11,106 bases of DNA. Source: an uncultured bacterium (lineage in GTDB: Bacteria; Aquificota; Aquificia; Desulfurobacteriales; Desulfurobacteriaceae). The stretch covers positions 1 through 11,106 of the forward strand of contig CAZZKT010000039.1 of NCBI GenBank assembly GCA_964654625.1. Direction: 5' to 3'. A program made the position numbers and the translations under genes. This document shows positions 1-9,306 of the stretch, in pieces. The stretch's first letter is position 1. Each line of letters starts with the position of its first letter. The notes under the pieces were generated by a model, which did no database searches, was not told the origin of the DNA, and saw only the letters and a program-made list of their open reading frames with translations.

Positions 1-357
1 TCTGTTTTTCAATCCGGGATGAGGAACGGTCAAAGTTTTCGTCCTTATTCGCAGGTTCTCCACCAAAACGATGTCCGCATCAAAAGTTCTTTTTCCCCAC
101 CTTCTTCCCTTTTTCCTGCCGAGTCTTTTCTCACACCACTTTAAAACTTTTAAGAGTTCAAAAGGAGGATGGTAAGACTCAATAAGAATCCCTGCGTTCA
201 AAAAACTCGGTTGTTTTTCAAAACCCCAAGGGAGAGTTTCAATTATTCTTGTTCTTTTTATTACCTTTCCGGCGAATTTATCTATCAGTTTTATTCCGGA
301 TTCAATGTAGAACCTTCTGTTTCCAAGGTTTGAACCGAGAATTAAAACCGCTTTCAC
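1..357 (-). CDS. folK: 2-amino-4-hydroxy-6-hydroxymethyldihydropteridine pyrophosphokinase (HPPK), N-terminal 119 codons; C-terminus lies beyond position 1
   Basis: Absent from the ORF track because it runs off the window. Reading the minus strand by hand from 357 downward gives V(GTG)KAVLILGSNLGNRRFYIESGIKLIDKFAGKVIKRTRIIETLPWGFEKQPSFLNAGILIESYHPPFELLKVLKWCEKRLGRKKGRRWGKRTFDADIVLVENLRIRTKTLTVPHPGLKNR, with no stop before position 1. The blocks LGSNLG, TLPWG, FLNAG, RWGxRTxDxDI and LxxPHP are the conserved HPPK motifs. An in-frame TGA three codons upstream (364-366) fixes GTG 355-357 as the start. That GTG overlaps the TGA stop of the SPFH gene (GTGA). Confidence 0.75.
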   Translation of the reverse strand, partial: MKAVLILGSNLGNRRFYIESGIKLIDKFAGKVIKRTRIIETLPWGFEKQPSFLNAGILIESYHPPFELLKVLKWCEKRLGRKKGRRWGKRTFDADIVLVENLRIRTKTLTVPHPGLKNR

Positions 358-1283
358 TCTTTGTCAATCCACATGTGAAGGTTGGAAGACTGCGGAACAT
401 TTATGAAGAGTTTTACGTTCTTGTTTTCCTTTAAACTTTCCGCAATCTTCATCTGAACGTCAAGTTCTTTCCACCTTAAAATTTTGCTCGTTATTGACTT
501 TGACAAAAGTTCGTTTGCCTTTGCTTCCGCTTCTGCCCTCTTGAGTCGTGCTTCCGCTTCCGCCTGAGCCTTTATGACTTTCTGGATTCTCTCTGTCTCC
601 GCTTGAATCTTTTTAACCTCTTGCTCTCTTTTCGCCTGCTCTTCAACGTATTTCATTCTTTCCGCTTCCTGTTTTGCAAGTTGAACTTCCTTGATTTTCT
701 TTTCAATTTCCGGAGGAAGGAGAATGTTTCTTAACTGAACGCCGACCACTTCAACAGACCTTTTTGACTGCTTTGATATTTCTCTCCTGATTCCTTCTTC
801 TATCTTCGTTGCTATTTCGGTTCTCTTCGTAGGAATAACTTCTGCGGGATAACTTCCGATAACGTCTCTGACAACTTCCCTGACTATCGGATTAACGAGT
901 TTCTCTTCCCAGTTCCATCCCCACTCCTGGAGAGTCTCGGAAGCCTTATCCGGTAGCAGTCTGTATTGAACCGTAAGTTCAACCTGAATCGGCAATCCCC
1001 TTTCGTCAAGAACCATTATTGAAGGTTTGTTTATGAGACCGACTTTGTCCTTTAAGTCTTGCTCTCCCTTGTAGTTTATTGCGTGAATCTTTACGTCCAC
1101 CTTCTTGATGTCTTGGATTATCGGAATTCTAAAGTGAAGTCCCGGCGGAAGTTCGTTTTCGTCATACTTTCCGAGCGTTATCTTCACGCCCACAAATCCA
1201 GACTCAATAGTTTCAAAAGGTTTGAAGGTCAAAAACAGAATTATTCCAAGAACGATTGCGGTAAAAAGCCTTATCACATCCAT
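354..1283 (-). CDS. SPFH/band-7 (stomatin/flotillin-like) membrane protein, 309 aa, N-terminal TM helix, C-terminal EA-rich coiled coil
   Basis: ORF 354..1283 (-). N-terminal hydrophobic helix LFTAIVLGIILFLTF. The band-7 core begins at PPGLHFRIPIIQDIKKVDVKIHAINY. The C-terminal third is Glu/Ala/Lys-rich heptads (KQEAERMKYVEEQAKREQEVKKIQAETERIQKVIKAQAEAEARLKRAEAEAKA), like the EA repeats of bacterial flotillins. ATG at 1283 is preceded by GGGG at -10 to -7. This SD sits inside the end of the PilZ gene. Confidence 0.85.
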   Translation of the reverse strand: MDVIRLFTAIVLGIILFLTFKPFETIESGFVGVKITLGKYDENELPPGLHFRIPIIQDIKKVDVKIHAINYKGEQDLKDKVGLINKPSIMVLDERGLPIQVELTVQYRLLPDKASETLQEWGWNWEEKLVNPIVREVVRDVIGSYPAEVIPTKRTEIATKIEEGIRREISKQSKRSVEVVGVQLRNILLPPEIEKKIKEVQLAKQEAERMKYVEEQAKREQEVKKIQAETERIQKVIKAQAEAEARLKRAEAEAKANELLSKSITSKILRWKELDVQMKIAESLKENKNVKLFINVPQSSNLHMWIDKE

Positions 1284-1286
1284 CTT

Positions 1287-1937
1287 TTACCCCGCTTTTG
1301 CTTCTGTCAAAAGTTCTTTTACAAAGCGGGTGTAGTTTCTGATTATGTATTTCATAATGTCAAAGTTTGCTTTTACGATTTTTGCTCCAAAGGTAACTTC
1401 GTGTTCGGTCATTTTCGTTCTTACCACTTCAACCTCAAGTTTTTGAGAACCTTGTTGAATAACAAGAATGTTTCCTTCTCTAACATCCTCGTGGAGAAGG
1501 GTTTTTGAAAATCCCTTTATTCCCCCGAGGCTTATGTCCAGTATGTAGCAGTTTCCAAGTTCTTTACCCTCGGGACTCAAAACGTTGAACTTTCCGAGAA
1601 ATTCGGGACAAAAAGAAAATCGGTCAAAAGCCCTGCTTTCTACGATTTTTTCGCCTTTAGAAATGTCAACCAAGTATCCTTTCTCAACTTTCTGTTTTAT
1701 CTCCCCTATTATGAGTTCTGTTCTGCCGTCTTGAAGAATGGACTTCACAAGTAGTAATTCCTTGTCTTTTAAAACTTCTGCTATTCCTGCTGGAGAAAAT
1801 CTGTCAGCGATGAAGGTCCCATCTTCCTGTTCAACGACTCTGAAACTGAAAAGGATAGGTATGGAAACCGTATGCACAATGTCCTTACATTGGGCTTGGA
1901 AATGATAGACACCATCAAGCCTCTTTCCTTGCTCCAT
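1287..1937 (-). CDS. PilZ-domain c-di-GMP-binding protein, YcgR-like two-domain architecture (about 100-aa N-domain plus PilZ), 216 aa from ATG 1937 (alternative TTG 1958 gives 223 aa)
   Basis: ORF 1287..1958 (-). Both PilZ signature motifs are present with canonical spacing: RAFDR (RxxxR) at residues 102-106, then 27 residues later DISLGG (D/NxSxGG) at 134-139. I hand-checked nt 1521-1538, which read gac ata agc ctc ggg gga on the minus strand. The first in-frame codon at 1956-1958 is TTG. The first ATG, at 1935-1937, has GAGGG 9 nt upstream and is the preferred start. Either start overlaps the 3' end of the upstream MCP gene (stop at 1915-1917) by 23 or 44 nt. Confidence 0.75.
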
Positions 1938-3735
1938 TTTCAGACACCCTCTCAACAATTAGTTCAAACAACTCTACAGTTTTTATGGCGTTCTTTTCAA
2001 ATGCCTCAAACTTTTCACAAACTTTTTCTTCACCGATGGACTTAATTATGTCTTTCGCTGATATGAAGCAGGATTCAAGTTGAGCGTCAAGTTTGTTTGC
2101 AAGTTCGTCAATATCTTTAACCTTTAAAGATTTCAATTCTTTTTCAAGCCATTTTTTAAGGGGTGAAGTTTCGTATTCCAAGGGAACCTGAACTCCTTGA
2201 GAAACTTTTGGAAGTTTTGACATCCATTCCGTAAATAGTTCAAGACCCTTCAAGACTTTGAGCATTTCTCCTATGTCAAACCTTGAAATGTTGTCCTGAA
2301 CACTCCTGATGGATGCTCTCGTGCTGTAAATCCTGTCGCTGAGTTTCTTAAACACTTCTTGAAACCTTTGAATTTCTTCATTGATTACCGCAACGTTTTC
2401 CCTGACGATGTCAAGAGCGCTGAGTTGCTGTTTGAGAGAGAACAAAACGCTTTCCATTTTCTTTGACAAAGACTTTACCCTGTTTCTTATGTTCGTAAGA
2501 ACGTTTTCAGTTCTTGCCATTTCTTCTTTAACGTTAAAGGCTTCTCCTGCCCTCTCTTCAAGGTCCCTTGCAAAGCCTTCAATGAGGTGGATAATGTTGT
2601 TAACTATTTCACCGATTTCTTCTGCAGAACTAACCGTTCTTGTTGCAAGTTTTCTTACTTCTTCTGCAACAACCGCAAATCCCCTTCCGTGTTCTCCCGC
2701 CCTTGCAGCTTCAATTGCAGCGTTAAGAGCAAGGAGGTTCGTTTGGTCCGCAATCGTTTTGATGGTTTCCACCACGTCTTTTATCTTTACGGAACTTTGC
2801 TGAAGTTCTTCCATCTTACTTCTCAAAGCGATAACTTTGTCTGCAAGTGCCTGAACGTCATTTGCGGACCTTGCAATCGTTTTTGTTCCTTCCGCAGTTT
2901 CTTTATCAACGGAAGAAACTTCACTACTTGCGGAATTAACAAGTTTGTTAACGTCCGCTATTGAATTGGCAAGAACTTCCGAAGAGGCGGAAAGTTCCAA
3001 GAACTTGTCTCTTATGTCTTTGTTCTTTATTGAAGTGTTAAAAAGTTCCATTGTCAAAACGCTTGAATCGTTGGAAACTTTTGATGCAAGTTTTCCGAGT
3101 TCTTCAAACGTTGACCTTATCCAAGATACAAACCTGTCAAACTCTTGAGCAAGCATTCCAAGTTCGTCTTTTCTGTTGAGGAAAAGTTTCTTGGTGAGGT
3201 TGCCTTTTTCAATTTCTCTCATGGTTTCTATCATCTTTTGTATGGGAATTACGATAGCCCTGTAGGAACTGACTGCTCCAATTCCTATGATTATCAAACT
3301 AAAAAGCGGGATTATTCTTACAAGTTTTTCTGCAAAATCCAAAAGATTGTGGGCTTTTTGAGAAGTTACCTTTCTTATTGAATCTATTTGTTTCTCTCTT
3401 TCGGTTAAAAACTCTGAAGTTTCTTCACCTTTTTTAACAGTTGAAATAATTTCAAGAAGCACGGTGTATGCTTTTGATGATTCAGGAAAGTCAAATTCGG
3501 TAAGTTTAACGAGTGAGTGTTCTAATTTGTCAAGTGCTTGTTCTTTGTGAGTTTGATTTTGGGTTACTACGGATGCCTTTAGTTCGGTGATTGACTTTTC
3601 AATTTTGGACAGAAAAGAAGAGAATTCGTTAATGTTCCGAAACTCTCGGAGTTTAAAGGCTACAAACTCTGTGAAGAATAAAATCATTGCCACTTCCACA
3701 ACCAAGGAAACAACGAGTTTCGTTTTAATCTTCAT
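1915..3735 (-). CDS. Methyl-accepting chemotaxis protein (transmembrane chemoreceptor): TM1, small (~110 aa) helical periplasmic domain, TM2, HAMP, MCP signalling domain, plus ~120-aa C-terminal extension of unknown function
   Basis: ORF 1915..3735 (-), 606 aa. TM1 is [23 protein letters not shown]2 is [23 protein letters not shown]-like segment follows ([42 protein letters not shown]). The invariant MCP hairpin-tip motif [31 protein letters not shown] was hand-verified at nt 2656-2745. ATG 3735 has GAGGGG 6 nt upstream. Confidence 0.9.
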
Positions 3736-3910: not shown

Positions 3911-4003
3911 GGAGGGGTGCCCGAGTGGCCGAAGGGGCACGACTGGAAATCGTGTGTACCCCGAAAAGGGGTACCGCGGGTTCGAATCCCGCCCCCTCCG
4001 CCA
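3911..4003 (+). tRNA. tRNA-Ser (anticodon GGA), class II with long variable arm, CCA encoded
   Basis: Folded by hand. Acceptor stem GGAGGGG (3911-3917) pairs with CCCCTCC (3993-3999). D-arm is CCC/GGG. Anticodon stem CACGA (3938-3942) pairs with TCGTG (3950-3954), and the loop CTGGAAA has U33, anticodon GGA at 3945-3947 and A37. Variable arm is a perfect 7-bp stem, GTACCCC with GGGGTAC, and a GAAAA loop. T-arm is GCGGG, loop TTCGAAT, CCCGC. Discriminator G at 4000, then CCA 4001-4003. Confidence 0.92.
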
Positions 4004-4016
4004 TATGAATTGAAGT

Positions 4017-6281
4017 TTAAGTCTTAAACGTCATCATTATCTTGTTAAGTTCCTCAATTTCCCTTTTAATGTTTTGGATTCCTGCAATCAGCGATTCAAC
4101 CATTTCGTAGTTTTCCTTTGAAGAAGCACTTATCACTTCAATTTCTCTCAAAATCTCCTCAATGTCGGAAAGCATCTTCGCGGACTTAACTTTCAAAGTT
4201 TTGAGAACATCCGCCGTTCCCTCTATCATTTCTCTGACTTTATCCATTTCCCCCGTTACTTCGTCTTGGGCCTTTTTGAGCATTTCAACGTTTTCTTCCG
4301 TGCTTTGGATGATTGTTCCAGCAGTTTGATTAATGAAATCACTGATGCTTGAAATTATTTCGCTTATTTCAGAAGTGTTCTTTCTTATTTGTTCTGCAAG
4401 TTTCCTTATCTCATCCGCAACGACCGCAAATCCTCTTCCCGCATCTCCGGCTCTCGCCGCTTCAATTGCTGCGTTTAAAGCCAAAAGGTTGGTTCTGTTC
4501 GTAATTTCCCCGATGATTTCTGAAATTTCCTTAATTGTTTCTGTCTTTTTACTCAATTCTCCAAGTTTTGACGAAATTTCACTGCTTTCTTTCTCCGTTT
4601 TTACGACTACTTCTTGGAGATTTTTGAAACTCTCCATTACTCCTTTAAGGCTGTTGGTGGCACTTTTCATTTTCGTGAAAGAACTTTCTATGAGGTCTTT
4701 GAACTCTTTAAGGGGTTCTGACACAGCCTGCGCTATTTTTGAAGCGGTTGAAACTGCTTCAACCTCTTTTTCTATCTTTTGCTTTGAAGTTTCAGCCTTA
4801 TTTGCAAGTTCTTTGGCTATCCCAACGGTTTCCGAAAGGACTTCCTTAGCCTTGGAAACTATTTCTCTCGTTTTCCTTATGAAACTGTTAAAGTATCTTG
4901 ATGCGGTTCCCACCTCGTCGTCTCCGTGAATGCTCAATTCCTTGGTAAGGTCTCCCTCTCCTTCCGCAAGGTCTTTTGCGGTTTCTGCAAGAAGGTTGAT
5001 GGGCTTAACCACAGAAAACTTAACAAACGCAACCATACCGGCCATCAGGAAAATCAGGAATACAATGGCAAACGCCAAAGTTTTGTTCTCCTTTATGGAT
5101 GTTAATCCTTTCAAAACTTCTTCTTCCTCAATCTCTGCAACTATTGCCCATTTCTTGTCAAATACGTTTATAGGTGCATAAACGAGAAGAACCGGCCTTC
5201 CGAAAAAGTTCTTCCCGAAAGCCCTTCCTTTTTCACCGCTCAGAGCCTTTCTCACCGCATCGTTTTCAACTTTTAGCACTCCTATGGTCGTTCCCGAAAT
5301 TTTCACCAAGGGGTCGTCAATGTCTTTTAGAAACCTTACGTTGTTTCTTAAAAGGAGGTCTTCACCCACCAAGTAAACTTCCCCCGTTTTGCCAAGACCG
5401 ACTTTCTCAAACTCGTAGTTAAAGTTAACGATGGCGTCTATCTTATCAATGGGAAGTTGAAAGGCAACAACTCCTATGACCTTGCCGTTTTTGTAAACCG
5501 GAGAAGCGATAAATGCTGCCGGCTGGTTGTAACTCGGCTCGTAGGGTTTAAAGTCGGAAAAGGCAACTTTCCCTTCTGGAAGTTCAAGGGCTTTTCTGAA
5601 AACTTCTGCAAGACCGGTATCCTTGTAGGGTCCCTTAAAAAGGTTTGTGGCAAAGTCCTTTTCTTTGAAGTCCGTGTAGAAAACGGTTCCTTGAGTGTCA
5701 ATGAAGAAAACATCGTAGAGTCCAAACGATTTAACCATTTTGTCAATCCACGGATGAATTTTCTTGTGAAAGTTCATGTAAGTGGAAGGAAAGCCTTCTA
5801 TCCAAGAGGATTTGTTCTTTTCTCCTATTGGGTTCGGATTTTTAACGATGAATATGTATTGGGCTACGATACCCGCTTCGCTCTTCGGAAAGTAGTAATC
5901 AATCGGTTTCGGTTTGGGAGCAGAGGGAACTTTGTAGTTAACCTTGTTCAAATAATGATTTTCGTATTCTTCTCTCAAAGCACTTAACACCGCTTCCCTG
6001 TCAACGGAAACTTCAAACGGTAAGTTGTAAAATGCCCTTGAAAAGTCTTCAAAAATGTTCTTTAAGAGGTTGTCTTCCGCAACGGAAACGAGCAGGTTTT
6101 CCATATAGGAAAAGTAGTCTTCAACGTGTTGTTTTTTCCCTTCCTCTATGACTTCCAACCTTCCGAAAGCCTGCTTTATGACGTTATCCTTTGAAGACTT
6201 GTAAGTTGAAATTCCAACTACAATTGCAAGAACCCAAAGTCCAAGCACTCCAAAAGCAAGGAGTTTTCTTTCTATCGTCAT
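4017..6281 (-). CDS. Methyl-accepting chemotaxis protein with large (~350 aa) double-Cache-like periplasmic sensor, TM2, HAMP, MCP signalling domain; 754 aa from ATG 6281 (track ORF extends to ATG 6329)
   Basis: ORF 4017..6329 (-). The invariant motif [31 protein letters not shown] was hand-verified at nt 4421-4500. The periplasmic region contains two Cache/PAS-like blocks: [17 protein letters not shown]...[32 protein letters not shown] and [15 protein letters not shown]...[24 protein letters not shown]. Start choice: ATG 6329 and ATG 6308 have no SD. ATG 6279-6281 is preceded by GGAGGAGGG and AAGGTGAG and gives the typical short cytoplasmic N-terminus MTIERK followed by TM1 [18 protein letters not shown]. 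Confidence 0.88.
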
Positions 6282-6383
6282 TCTCACCTTCAACTTGCCC
6301 TCCTCCATGCAGTTTTTGGATATGTGCATTATTTATGCTACACTATTTTTGTCGTAATTAGAAGTAATTGCAGGAGGTAAGTT
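6282..6383. promoter_or_regulatory. Divergent intergenic region (102 bp) with promoters for the MCP gene (leftward) and the oxidoreductase-purH-ABC-hemB string (rightward); strand-switch point of the window
   Basis: This is the only sizeable non-coding gap besides the tRNA region. It contains the SD GGAGGT 5 nt before GTG 6384, and SD-like GGAGGAGGG and AAGGTGAG on the other strand before ATG 6281. The -35/-10 hexamers are ambiguous. TTATGC-16-TAATTA is a weak candidate. Confidence 0.35.
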
Positions 6384-7742
6384 GTGCATAAGGATGTCGT
6401 CATAATCGGCGGAGGACCGGCCGGATTCAACTGTGCGAAGACCGTCAAAAAACTGTTTCCGAAAAAGTCCGTCCTCGTAATAACGGACAGAGAAGATTCT
6501 CAAATCCCTTGCGCGGTTCCGTATGTTCTTTCCGGAATGCTGAAACCGGAGGAAAATAGGCATCCTTTGAAGAAATTAGAAGACCTCGGAATAGAAGTCT
6601 TAATCGGAAGAGCAACTGCAATAGACAGTTATAAAGGAAAAGTAATTCTTGAGGACGGAAATTCCCTCTCTTACGAAAAACTCGTAATCGCTACGGGCTG
6701 GGCTCCAAACAGACTGCACGCAGGAAACATGGAACTTGAAGGAATTTTTTATCCTTCCGTAATCACTCAAGAAGTCAAACAAACCGCAGAACGGATAAAA
6801 AAAGCGGAAAAAATTCTGATAGTCGGCGCGGGATTAATCGGTTTGAACTTGAGCGGTTTGTTAAAGTCTAACTTTCCGGACAAAAGGGTTTTTCTGGTTG
6901 AAGCAAGGGACTTCCTCGCAAACGGCATCTTTTCAAAGGAAGTTGAAGAAGACATTGAAAAAGAACTTGAAAGATTGGGCGTTGAATTAATTAAAAACAA
7001 CGCAGTTCTTGAATTTGAAGGAAAAGAAAGGGTTGAAAGTGCGGTTCTGAAAGACCGCAGGATTGAGGTTGACACCTGCTTTATTTCCATAGGTTTTAGA
7101 CCGAACACGTCCCTTGCCATGGAGGCGGGCATAGAAACTGACCACAAAGGAGCGATAATAGTTGACAGTTTTATGAGAACTTCCGTAGAAGGCATTTTGG
7201 CATGCGGAGACTGCGTTCAACACAGGTCCGCAATAGACGGAAAGGTAATAACCGCAATGTTTGCAAGTGTTGCCGGAAGGGACGGAAGGGTGGCAGGGAT
7301 GAACATTGAAGGGCCGGAAGTAAAACTGGAAAAAGTAGTTCCTTCCGGAATAACACAGGTCGGCAGTCTTTTTGTCGGATTTGCAGGATACACCGGGAGA
7401 ATTCTGAAAGAAAATTCAATCGCTTATTCTTCCACCTCCTCGTCCGCAACAGACGGCCATCCTTCAGCATTAAAACCGAAAGAGTTTAAGGTGAAACTCT
7501 ACTTTGACAAGAGAGGAAAAATTATCGGGGGAGAAGTTGTAGGAAGGTCAAAGTCCGTGTCCTACCTTGTAGAACTTCTAAAAATTTTCATCTTTGAAAG
7601 AAGGCACGCTGAAGAAATAGTATCCTTGACAAGAAACGCATTTCCGCTTCTTACACCTTCTCCTCTTTCCGAACCGATTTCGGAATGTGCAGTTGAATTT
7701 GTTAAAAATTGGTCTTTTGCGGGGGAAAGCGGTGAAGGTTAG
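6384..7742 (+). CDS. FAD-dependent pyridine nucleotide-disulfide oxidoreductase, single-cysteine class (CoA-disulfide reductase / NADH oxidase family), 452 aa
   Basis: GTG start with GGAGGT SD. The N-terminal FAD-binding fold is VVIIGGGPAGFNCAKT. The redox-active single Cys is in SQIPCAVPYVLSG (Cys43, codon 6510-6512 tgc, hand-verified), which resembles the CoADR SFxxCALPY motif. A second Rossmann fold (NAD(P)H) is KILIVGAGLIGLNLSG. The C-terminal dimerisation domain carries AFPLLTPSP, corresponding to the family's AYAPP block. Confidence 0.85.
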   Translation: MHKDVVIIGGGPAGFNCAKTVKKLFPKKSVLVITDREDSQIPCAVPYVLSGMLKPEENRHPLKKLEDLGIEVLIGRATAIDSYKGKVILEDGNSLSYEKLVIATGWAPNRLHAGNMELEGIFYPSVITQEVKQTAERIKKAEKILIVGAGLIGLNLSGLLKSNFPDKRVFLVEARDFLANGIFSKEVEEDIEKELERLGVELIKNNAVLEFEGKERVESAVLKDRRIEVDTCFISIGFRPNTSLAMEAGIETDHKGAIIVDSFMRTSVEGILACGDCVQHRSAIDGKVITAMFASVAGRDGRVAGMNIEGPEVKLEKVVPSGITQVGSLFVGFAGYTGRILKENSIAYSSTSSSATDGHPSALKPKEFKVKLYFDKRGKIIGGEVVGRSKSVSYLVELLKIFIFERRHAEEIVSLTRNAFPLLTPSPLSEPISECAVEFVKNWSFAGESGEG

Positions 7743-9306
7743 AAGGGCTTTGATTTCCGTTTCTGACAAAACGGGAATTGTTGAATTTGCCAAAAAACTT
7801 TCGGAACTCGGAGTGGAAATAATCTCAACCGGAGGAACCGCAAAACTTTTGAAAGAATCCGGAATTGCGGTGAAGGAAGTCTCAGAAATCACCGGATTTC
7901 CGGAAATTCTTGACGGAAGAGTTAAAACCCTCCATCCCGTAATTCACGGCGGAATCCTTGCAAAGAGGGATACTCCCGCTCACCTTACCCAGTTGAACGA
8001 ACACGGCATACCGTTCATAGACCTCGTGGTGGTCAACCTCTATCCGTTCAGGGAAACGGTTGAAAAGGGTGCAAGTTTTGAAGAAATCATAGAAAACATA
8101 GACATCGGAGGTCCGACGCTCATAAGGAGTTCAGCCAAAAACTTCAAGTTCGTGGCGGTAGTCGTTGACCCCGAAGACTATCAAAAGGTTATCAGCGAAA
8201 TTGAGGAAACTGGAGAAGTCAGCGAAGAAACGAGGTTTTACCTTGCAAGAAAAGCGTTTTCCCTCACTGCATTTTACGATGCGGTGATTTCCCAATACTT
8301 TAATTCCGTTGACAGCAAGGGAATTCCCGTTCCTCCGGAAGAGTTTCCGAAAAACCTTACGATACCCCTTGAAAAGGTTTGTGATATGAGATACGGAGAA
8401 AATCCCCATCAAAGGGCATCCTTTTACAGAGATGTCTTTTCTACCGGGGGAGTGGCAAACGCAGAGGTTCTATACGCAGGAAAACCTTTGTCGTTTAACA
8501 ATATATGCGACATTGATTCGGCGTTTGGTCTTGCCTGCGAATTTGACGTTGAAAGGGACGGAGTTTCCTGCGTAATAGTAAAACATTCAAATCCTTGCGG
8601 AGTAGCGGTTTCCTGTTCTCCCGTTCGTGCTTACGAACTTGCCCTGCAAACGGACCCGATTTCTGCCTTCGGGGGAATAGTTGCTTTTAACTCAAAGGTT
8701 GACGAAGAAACTGCAAGGCTTCTGATTCAAAGGTTTTACGAGTGCGTTTGCGCTCCGGACTTTGAAGAGTCTGCGGTGGAGATTCTTAAAAGCAAAAAAA
8801 ATCTCCGGGTTCTCAAGATAAAGCAAGAAATCTTCCCGAGATTTCCCTTTGACCTGCGAAAGGTCTCCGGAGGAGTTCTGGTTCAGGACACCGATTCTGC
8901 GGTATTTTCGGACATGCCGGAGGTTGTGAGCGGTAAAGAACCGAGTGAAGAAGAATGGAAGGAACTTGAATTTGCGTTCAAGGTAGTCAAGTGGGTAAAG
9001 TCAAACGGCGTTGTTTTTGCCAAAGGAACGAGAACTCTTGCAATAGGCGTGGGACAGACATCAAGGATTGACGCAATAAAGTGTGCAATTGAGAAAGCAA
9101 GGTCATTGGGATTTGACCTTAAAGGTAGCGTTTTGGCATCGGAAGCGTTCTTTCCGTTCAAGGATGCGGTTGAAGAGGCTTACAAGGTCGGCGTCAAAGC
9201 AATCATCCAACCCGGCGGTTCCATAAGGGATGAAGAGGTCATAGAAACTGCCAGAAATCTCGGAATAACTATGGTGTTTACGAAGATAAGGCACTTTAGA
9301 CACTAA
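7732..9306 (+). CDS. purH: Bifunctional AICAR formyltransferase / IMP cyclohydrolase
   Basis: The track ORF begins at 7687, but that would overlap the upstream gene by 56 nt. GTG at 7732-7734 is preceded by GGGGGA 6 nt upstream. It gives the canonical N-terminus M-KVRRALISVSDKTGIVEFAK and overlaps the oxidoreductase stop (7740-7742) by 11 nt. The MGS-like domain motif DIGGPTLIRSSAKN is present, and the C-terminal AICARFT domain ends at the TAA at 9304-9306. Confidence 0.9.
   Translation: MKVRRALISVSDKTGIVEFAKKLSELGVEIISTGGTAKLLKESGIAVKEVSEITGFPEILDGRVKTLHPVIHGGILAKRDTPAHLTQLNEHGIPFIDLVVVNLYPFRETVEKGASFEEIIENIDIGGPTLIRSSAKNFKFVAVVVDPEDYQKVISEIEETGEVSEETRFYLARKAFSLTAFYDAVISQYFNSVDSKGIPVPPEEFPKNLTIPLEKVCDMRYGENPHQRASFYRDVFSTGGVANAEVLYAGKPLSFNNICDIDSAFGLACEFDVERDGVSCVIVKHSNPCGVAVSCSPVRAYELALQTDPISAFGGIVAFNSKVDEETARLLIQRFYECVCAPDFEESAVEILKSKKNLRVLKIKQEIFPRFPFDLRKVSGGVLVQDTDSAVFSDMPEVVSGKEPSEEEWKELEFAFKVVKWVKSNGVVFAKGTRTLAIGVGQTSRIDAIKCAIEKARSLGFDLKGSVLASEAFFPFKDAVEEAYKVGVKAIIQPGGSIRDEEVIETARNLGITMVFTKIRHFRH

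Follow-up and report, generated by a model that had tools for sequence, protein, structure and literature searches.

The described points of contact between cyclic di-GMP (c-di-GMP) signalling and bacterial chemotaxis include chemoreceptors with fused PilZ domains, the MapZ-CheR1 interaction, and flagellar brakes of the YcgR type. The fusion proteins, in which an MCPsignal domain is combined with a PilZ domain, bind c-di-GMP and, in the case of Tlp1 from Azospirillum brasilense and Cbp1 (TlpA1) from Azorhizobium caulinodans, integrate it into CheA-dependent chemotaxis (PMC3604760, PMC6454048; architecture in bioRxiv 10.1101/814665). In the MapZ (PA4608)-CheR1 system, a stand-alone PilZ adaptor brings c-di-GMP into chemoreceptor signalling (bioRxiv 10.1101/2020.02.11.943704). 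Here, we describe a further arrangement, encoded in an 11,106-nucleotide (nt) stretch of DNA from an uncultured member of the Desulfurobacteriaceae (GenBank assembly GCA_964654625.1, contig CAZZKT010000039.1; this whole stretch is referred to below as the window, coordinates follow its numbering, and the minus strand is marked by a minus sign in parentheses). It consists of a gene for a methyl-accepting chemotaxis protein (MCP), MCP1, and, directly behind it, a gene for a predicted two-barrel PilZ protein. The functional unit is best read as these two genes, not three, and we tentatively favor the view that the PilZ protein serves this one chemoreceptor as a detached subunit for sensing c-di-GMP, within CheA-dependent chemotaxis.

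Like Tlp1 and Cbp1, the present pair joins a chemoreceptor to a PilZ module, but it differs from them in being made of two polypeptides in all 12 loci analyzed, in having a PilZ protein with two predicted barrels instead of one, and in the presence of a predicted C-terminal four-helix bundle in MCP1 itself. The window protein shares with MapZ the stand-alone PilZ organization, the adaptor role being in its case a proposal. From YcgR, PlzD (VCA0042), and MotI (DgrA), which act on the motor, the window protein (for which a motor role is only a predicted candidate function) is set apart by the lack of PilZN or PilZNR sequence matches, the lack of a sequence match in the PDB, and its consistent encoding right behind one specific MCP orthologue. 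We know of no description of such coding directly behind one specific MCP for YcgR, MotI, or PlzD. The PilZN4-PilZ proteins of Aquificae, described by Galperin and Chou, are likewise an xPilZ-PilZ variant restricted to Aquificota; however, they have an N-terminal region of ∼210 amino acids (aa) with a pentahelical, possibly membrane-anchoring subdomain (bioRxiv 10.1101/814665), whereas the window protein's N-terminal domain comprises ∼100 aa and is modeled as all-beta with a single 5-residue helix. A conserved split pair of an MCP and a YcgR-shaped PilZ protein was not found in the literature that we searched, surveys of PilZ domains included. What appears to be new in this system is the combination of a dedicated receptor with a PilZ protein of predicted YcgR shape, set between che and C-ring genes in relatives, in deep-branching thermophiles.

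The PilZ protein and the chemoreceptor encoded ahead of it

The MCP1 gene (1915..3735 (-)) encodes a 606-aa protein, and its 3' end overlaps by 23 nt, in a different reading frame, with the gene for the 216-aa PilZ protein (1287..1937 (-); ATG at 1937, stop codon at 1287-1289). A Shine-Dalgarno-like sequence, GAGAGGGTG, can be read at 1945..1953 (-), 7 nt before the ATG of the PilZ gene. Because this site lies within the MCP1 coding region, translation of the PilZ gene is likely to be coupled to that of MCP1, and the junctions between the MCP and PilZ genes in general imply such coupling, as far as it can be read from the sequence.

In the Pfam search, the window protein matched the PilZ domain (PF07238) with a score of 20.2 bits (E 8e-4), below the curated cut-off of 22.5 bits; it had no match in NCBIfam and no meaningful sequence match in the PDB, whether the single protein or the family profile was used, and a word-indexed homologue search retrieved nothing except the protein itself. 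Scanning 1.8 billion representative proteins exhaustively with HMMER brought up a small family of 24 clusters, 195 to 220 aa in length and alignable over the full length, whose named members are limited to Desulfurobacteriaceae, Persephonella, and Nitrosophilus. Although family members share only 19 to 39% identity with the window protein, Arg102, Arg106, Ser136, and Gly139 are invariant in all 24 clusters. The two Arg residues belong to the RxxxR motif in the interdomain linker (R102-A-F-D-R106; 1620..1634 (-)), and Ser136 and Gly139 belong to the [D/N]hSxxG motif (D134-I-S-L-G-G139; 1521..1538 (-)), the first position of which is Asp, Asn, or Glu; the spacing of the two motifs is that required of a PilZ domain. 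Both motifs had been noted, in the form RxxxR and DxSxGG, in the initial annotation of this DNA, and the alignment bears out their conservation in the orthologues.

The AlphaFold2 model of the window protein, built on the family alignment, has a predicted local distance difference test score (pLDDT) of 94.1 and a predicted template modeling score (pTM) of 0.85. It consists of an N-terminal xPilZ beta-barrel (residues 1-100; 1937-1638 (-)) of seven strands with one 5-residue helix, which has neither the motifs nor a C-terminal helix, and, behind it, of a canonical PilZ domain (residues 101-216; 1637-1290 (-)), in which the six-stranded barrel and the long C-terminal alpha-helix are both present; this is the YcgR-type architecture. 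The top structural matches of the model were YcgR, PlzD/VCA0042, MotI, MrkH, and PlzA, and whole-chain matches were obtained with VCA0042, MotI, and YcgR. The N-terminal domains PF07317 (PilZN) and PF12945 (PilZNR) were not detected in the window protein at E≤0.1 or among the family members at E≤0.01. The description of this protein as YcgR-like, made at the outset, holds for its architecture, with the N-terminal domain falling outside these sequence families. The PilZ domain itself was matched by Pfam in 10 of the 24 family members at E≤0.01 (best E, 2e-8), and the orthologues from Desulfurobacterium thermolithotrophum and Persephonella atlantica carry the NCBI label "PilZ domain-containing protein." Since these matches are accompanied by four invariant motif residues and a PilZ fold, the subthreshold Pfam hit in the window protein is not a chance one, and the 216-aa protein is, by its alignment and its model, a genuine xPilZ-PilZ protein with the two-barrel YcgR architecture.

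Certain other residues of the PilZ family are also strongly conserved. Cys17 in the N-terminal barrel (1887-1889 (-)) is invariant, as are Ser31, Pro49, and Tyr202, and Cys110 (1608-1610 (-)), which belongs to an FCPE motif just past RxxxR, is nearly so. Arg6 and Phe30 are likewise counted, with Cys17, Ser31, Pro49, and Tyr202, among the conserved residues of the surface. The two cysteines and the invariant Ser31, Pro49, and Tyr202 could possibly mark a site for redox chemistry or metal binding, or else a surface for contact with a partner.

MCP1 begins with a transmembrane helix (TM1; residues 1-26, 3658-3735 (-)), which is followed by a variable extracytoplasmic segment (residues 27-135), a second transmembrane helix (TM2; residues 136-158, 3262-3330 (-)), a HAMP domain (residues 159-203, 3261-3127 (-); Pfam E 1e-9), the MCP signalling domain (residues 305-452, 2823-2380 (-); Pfam MCPsignal E 4e-38), and a C-terminal extension (residues ∼486-606, 1918..2280 (-)) delineated from the alignment and modeled by AlphaFold2 as a four-helix bundle (pLDDT, 84). 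Full-length orthologues with 54 to 61% identity were found in Phorcysia thermohydrogeniphila, D. thermolithotrophum, and related metagenome-assembled genomes (MAGs), and more distant ones show 39 to 43% identity. In the alignment of these orthologues, the hairpin tip is the best-conserved region (mean column identity of 92%, with an invariant tip sequence, which we take, from the universal MCP tip consensus, to be the canonical CheA/CheW-coupling one), followed by TM1 and TM2 (78 to 79%), HAMP (72%), the C-terminal ∼120 aa (46%), and, lowest of all regions, the extracytoplasmic segment (41%). The PilZ-paired MCPs vary in length from 351 to 612 aa, some of them having neither HAMP nor the C-terminal bundle, and in those of 351 to 423 aa the extracytoplasmic segment is nearly absent, as judged from length and sequence. 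An external segment that is poorly conserved or nearly missing fits a cytoplasmic input to the receptor. The conservation of the transmembrane helices, which equals that of HAMP and includes invariant Glu14, Thr22, and Glu23 within TM1, set beside the least-conserved extracytoplasmic segment, is a hint that MCP1 may function within the membrane or have a partner there.

The C-terminal extension of MCP1 contains the conserved motifs F-x-I-G, G-x-E-L-F-x-D-W, and L-P and a conserved Trp. In a Foldseek search, it was similar only to generic four-helix bundles, such as the CZB domain of DgcZ (3t9o; TM-score, 0.62 to 0.70; E 0.4). The possibility that it represents a degenerate CZB domain (PF13682) was not supported: the hhalign probability against true CZB domains was 1.4%, Pfam gave no match at E≤1, and the positions that correspond to the zinc ligands H..C..HxxxH of CZB are not occupied by His or Cys, so that only the topology of the fold is compatible with CZB.

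Conservation of the pair and its genomic contexts

The MCP-PilZ pair was analyzed in 12 contexts (the window; L005, D. thermolithotrophum; L006, Phorcysia; L017; L018; L010; L016, P. atlantica; L014/L015; L019, Nitrosophilus; L020; L012/L013; L-numbers are locus labels, L002, L004, L007, and L009 representing the lineage of the window itself). In 12 of the 12, an orthologous MCP gene is located immediately upstream of the PilZ gene, and the junctions are either overlaps of 1 to 23 nt, in the other reading frame, or gaps of 2 to 10 nt. The adjacency of these two genes, part of the MCP-PilZ-SPFH adjacency that the initial annotation had proposed to look for in relatives, is thus shared by Desulfurobacteriaceae, Persephonella-type bacteria, and Nitrosophilus and is not a peculiarity of the window genome. 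The MCP and PilZ genes are separate open reading frames (ORFs) in all these loci, which is why a frameshift artefact masking a true MCP-PilZ fusion was rejected. The PilZ-adjacent MCPs are each other's best matches, at 123 to 316 bits, compared to 72 to 108 bits for the other MCPs encoded in the same loci; together with the retained junction, this indicates that the pair has been inherited as a pair.

In the other Desulfurobacteriaceae (L005, L006, L017, and L018), the MCP and PilZ genes are separated by a 2-nt gap or overlap by 8, 23, or 14 nt. The pair is followed there by a convergent cofH-like radical-SAM gene and, in L005, L006, and L017, which include the upstream flank, is preceded by divergently transcribed genes for a tRNA-methyltransferase and DHODH, so that both flanks differ from those in the window. 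In L012/L013, the PilZ gene is preceded by a fragment that encodes the C terminus of an MCP with the extension and is followed by a CheZ-like gene. The 368-aa product of the gene upstream of the PilZ gene in Nitrosophilus kaiyonis (L019) is also an MCP (E 3e-34). The pair has outlasted several rearrangements that changed everything else around the MCP-PilZ junction.

The Persephonella-type loci (L010, L016, L014/L015, and L020) and the Nitrosophilus locus L019 share a layout in which cheA-cheW-cheV-cheY and, next in order, a gene for a CZB-containing MCP are found directly beside the pair, which is followed by fliG-fliM-fliN-flgF/G-flgA-flgH-flgI; beyond flgI, the gene run extends into flhA in L016, L019, and L020. 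The che block is codirectional with the pair in L010 and L016, whereas it diverges from the pair in L014, L019, and L020. L016 and L020 have a CheZ gene ahead of cheA. The same position, directly upstream of cheA, is taken in L014 (4421-4771) and L019 (6409-6765) by ORFs of 116 to 118 aa without Pfam matches, which may encode divergent or truncated CheZ-like proteins. The occurrence of this layout in N. kaiyonis (AP025696.1, 6905-9676), a campylobacterotal vent bacterium, suggests that the whole chemotaxis/flagellar block was transferred between phyla of vent thermophiles.

Within the Desulfurobacteriaceae, a cheYVBWAZ operon has been described in Thermovibrio ammonificans and is conserved in D. 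thermolithotrophum (PMC5441870), which also carries an orthologous MCP-PilZ pair. The presence of CheA in this family is taken from that report and from the Persephonella-type and Nitrosophilus loci; no che genes were found in the 20 kb that were read of the window's own 41-kb scaffold, which stems from a hydrothermal metagenome; these 20 kb contain three MCP genes. In Phorcysia, a gene for an EAL protein (of the c-di-GMP phosphodiesterase type) is located ∼4.5 kb from the pair, so Desulfurobacteriaceae possess genes for c-di-GMP turnover.

Possible functions of the pair

We infer that the PilZ protein would bind c-di-GMP at the RxxxR linker and the DxSxxG-bearing barrel and, once loaded, would dock on the cytoplasmic part of MCP1, where the C-terminal extension is a candidate site. 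Docking would shift the control that MCP1 exerts over CheA, and the cellular level of c-di-GMP could thereby feed into the ordinary CheA/CheW/CheV/CheY pathway and reach the flagellar switch through it. By analogy, Azospirillum Tlp1 and Azorhizobium Cbp1, in which receptor and PilZ domain are fused, would have in this pair a counterpart encoded by split genes, and the existence of such fusions in other bacteria provides a Rosetta-stone argument that the two separate proteins work together. This receptor-subunit function is favored because the MCP gene is the only invariant neighbor of the PilZ gene, the junctions point to coupled translation, fusions of the same two modules exist, and the external segment of the receptor is weakly conserved or nearly missing. 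The mutual best matches among the paired MCPs, the retention of the pair through rearrangements, and the EAL gene near the pair in Phorcysia also speak for it.

Several observations weigh against such a function. In L010, L015, L016, L019, and L020, the PilZ gene is separated from fliG-fliM-fliN by gaps of only 1 to 3 nt, as tight as its link to the MCP gene. The short MCPs that are paired with the PilZ protein in P. atlantica (L016) and L014 lack the C-terminal extension, an absence that speaks against this extension as a docking site, and the first position of the DxSxxG motif is Glu in several of the more distant PilZ family members, including those from Persephonella. To our knowledge, all characterized motility-linked two-domain PilZ proteins (YcgR, MotI, PlzD, and FlgZ) act on the motor and not on a receptor, and the MCP-fused PilZ domains known to us are all of the single-domain kind. 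Finally, the number of independent gene arrangements sampled is small, and the adjacency could partly reflect shared ancestry.

The main alternative is that the PilZ protein is a brake or clutch like YcgR, MotI, or PlzD, which upon c-di-GMP binding would attach to the rotor (FliG/FliM) or to the stator (MotA), with the effect that the motor is slowed or biased; its linkage to the MCP would then reflect coexpression alone, within a chemotaxis/flagellar regulon. YcgR is reported to contact FliG and MotA (PMC10140304, PMC12713396), the structures closest to the window protein are those of these motor effectors, with whole-chain matches to VCA0042, MotI, and YcgR, and the C-ring genes are the next ones after the PilZ gene in the five loci with short gaps. 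However, the link to fliG has been lost in Desulfurobacteriaceae, including the window lineage, and in L012, whereas the link to the MCP gene has never been lost; in addition, PilZN and PilZNR do not match, and it is not obvious why a brake should have to be coupled stoichiometrically to one particular receptor orthologue. We regard a motor brake as a serious alternative, somewhat less probable than the receptor subunit. In the Persephonella-type and Nitrosophilus layout, the PilZ gene lies exactly between the MCP gene and fliG, a location that would also fit a c-di-GMP-gated adaptor that is shared between its dedicated chemoreceptor and the C-ring (FliG/FliM) and provides a CheY-independent route from one receptor to the motor, parallel to the canonical pathway. 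This idea, to which we assign little probability, is a softened form of the proposal made in the initial annotation, that the MCP signals through the PilZ protein to the motor independently of CheA, with the SPFH protein encoded by the third gene serving as a membrane-microdomain scaffold. That proposal is consistent with how closely the three genes are packed in the window, with the YcgR-like fold, and with the proximity of the pair to fliG-fliM-fliN in some relatives. The tip of MCP1, conserved at 92%, is nevertheless presumably canonical, and the adjacency of the SPFH gene is confined to the window lineage, its sole relative found being in an unrelated context. With cheA, cheW, cheV, and cheY next to the pair in five loci of relatives and a che operon reported in T. 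ammonificans and D. thermolithotrophum (PMC5441870), a CheA-free circuit is very improbable, being largely refuted for the relatives, and nothing found speaks for an SPFH scaffold.

A different alternative is that the protein, despite its PilZ fold, serves mainly for something other than sensing c-di-GMP: it could be a factor in the assembly, localization, or stability of the MCP or an adaptor that responds to redox state or metals by means of the conserved cysteines. The Pfam score of the window protein below the cut-off, the invariant Cys17, and the nearly invariant Cys110, which in its FCPE motif lies beside RxxxR, could be accounted for in this way, and divergent PilZ proteins that have lost c-di-GMP binding have been described (bioRxiv 10.1101/2020.02.11.943704). 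The invariance of the four c-di-GMP-contact positions, Arg102, Arg106, Ser136, and Gly139, despite an identity of only 19 to 39%, argues for selection on nucleotide binding, which makes a non-sensor role distinctly unlikely.

The proposed receptor subunit leaves the CheA paradigm standing and is far less radical than a CheA-independent module would have been. As a compact, thermostable system, whose proteins should suit structural work, the pair could be used to ask whether a two-domain PilZ effector can act on a receptor rather than on the motor and how the fused and stand-alone solutions for combining an MCP with a PilZ module have evolved.

Neighboring genes in the window

Inspection of the ORFs and junctions in the sequence shows that, on the minus strand, the MCP and PilZ genes form a tight array with a gene for an SPFH/Band_7 membrane protein (354..1283 (-); 309 aa; Pfam Band_7 E 5e-34) and the 5' part of folK (1..357 (-); GTG start codon at 357; Pfam HPPK E 6e-26), a housekeeping neighbor. 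The SPFH gene starts after a 3-nt gap from the PilZ stop codon, and its own stop codon overlaps the folK start by 4 nt (GTGA). On re-reading of the ORFs, the gene packing given in the initial annotation proved to be exact at all three of these junctions. A scan of the window revealed no terminator-like site at or between the minus-strand gene junctions; the single minus-strand site of this kind falls within the 5' end of MCP1. The counts of promoter-like and terminator-like sites were not above those in shuffled sequence, and inspection by eye of the region upstream of MCP1 gave no convincing promoter of the sigma-28 or sigma-54 type. Cotranscription of the minus-strand genes appears plausible from this arrangement.

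Only in the lineage of the window itself (L002, L004, L007, and L009) does the SPFH gene come after the pair. In none of the 10 other lineages read is it adjacent to the pair, its place being taken by the cofH-like radical-SAM gene, fliG, or the CheZ-like gene. The SPFH gene is probably cotranscribed with the pair in the window, yet it does not belong to the conserved unit; its cotranscription seems to be due to chance gene order at this locus, and both SPFH and folK are lineage-specific neighbors of the pair. The scan of the genome collection yielded one relative of the SPFH protein (67% identity), encoded in the Hydrogenothermaceae MAG WFXI01000103.1 (L021, 2662-3651), where it adjoins genes for Bax1-I and MobA-like proteins. 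This relative comes from Hydrogenothermaceae, whereas the nearest relatives of MCP1 are found in Desulfurobacteriaceae, a mismatch that could reflect either mixed ancestry or a sampling gap in the collection.

Upstream of MCP1, a tRNA-Ser(GGA) gene on the opposite strand (3911..4003 (+), predicted by ARAGORN) marks the boundary of the MCP1 transcription unit and splits MCP1 and MCP2 into separate units. MCP2 (4017-6329 (-)) has the domain architecture dCache_1-HAMP-MCPsignal and an ambiguous start, either the ATG at 6329 or the position chosen by gene callers, 6293. MCP3, an 897-aa protein with the architecture NIT-HAMP-MCPsignal, is encoded just past the end of the window (L007, 11168-13861 (+)), so that three chemoreceptor genes are found within 14 kb. 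A gene for a pyridine nucleotide-disulfide oxidoreductase similar to CoA-disulfide reductase (6384-7742 (+)) overlaps by 11 nt with the start of purH (7732-9306 (+)), which is followed by a gene for an ABC ATPase and by hemB; this housekeeping block is divergent from MCP2.

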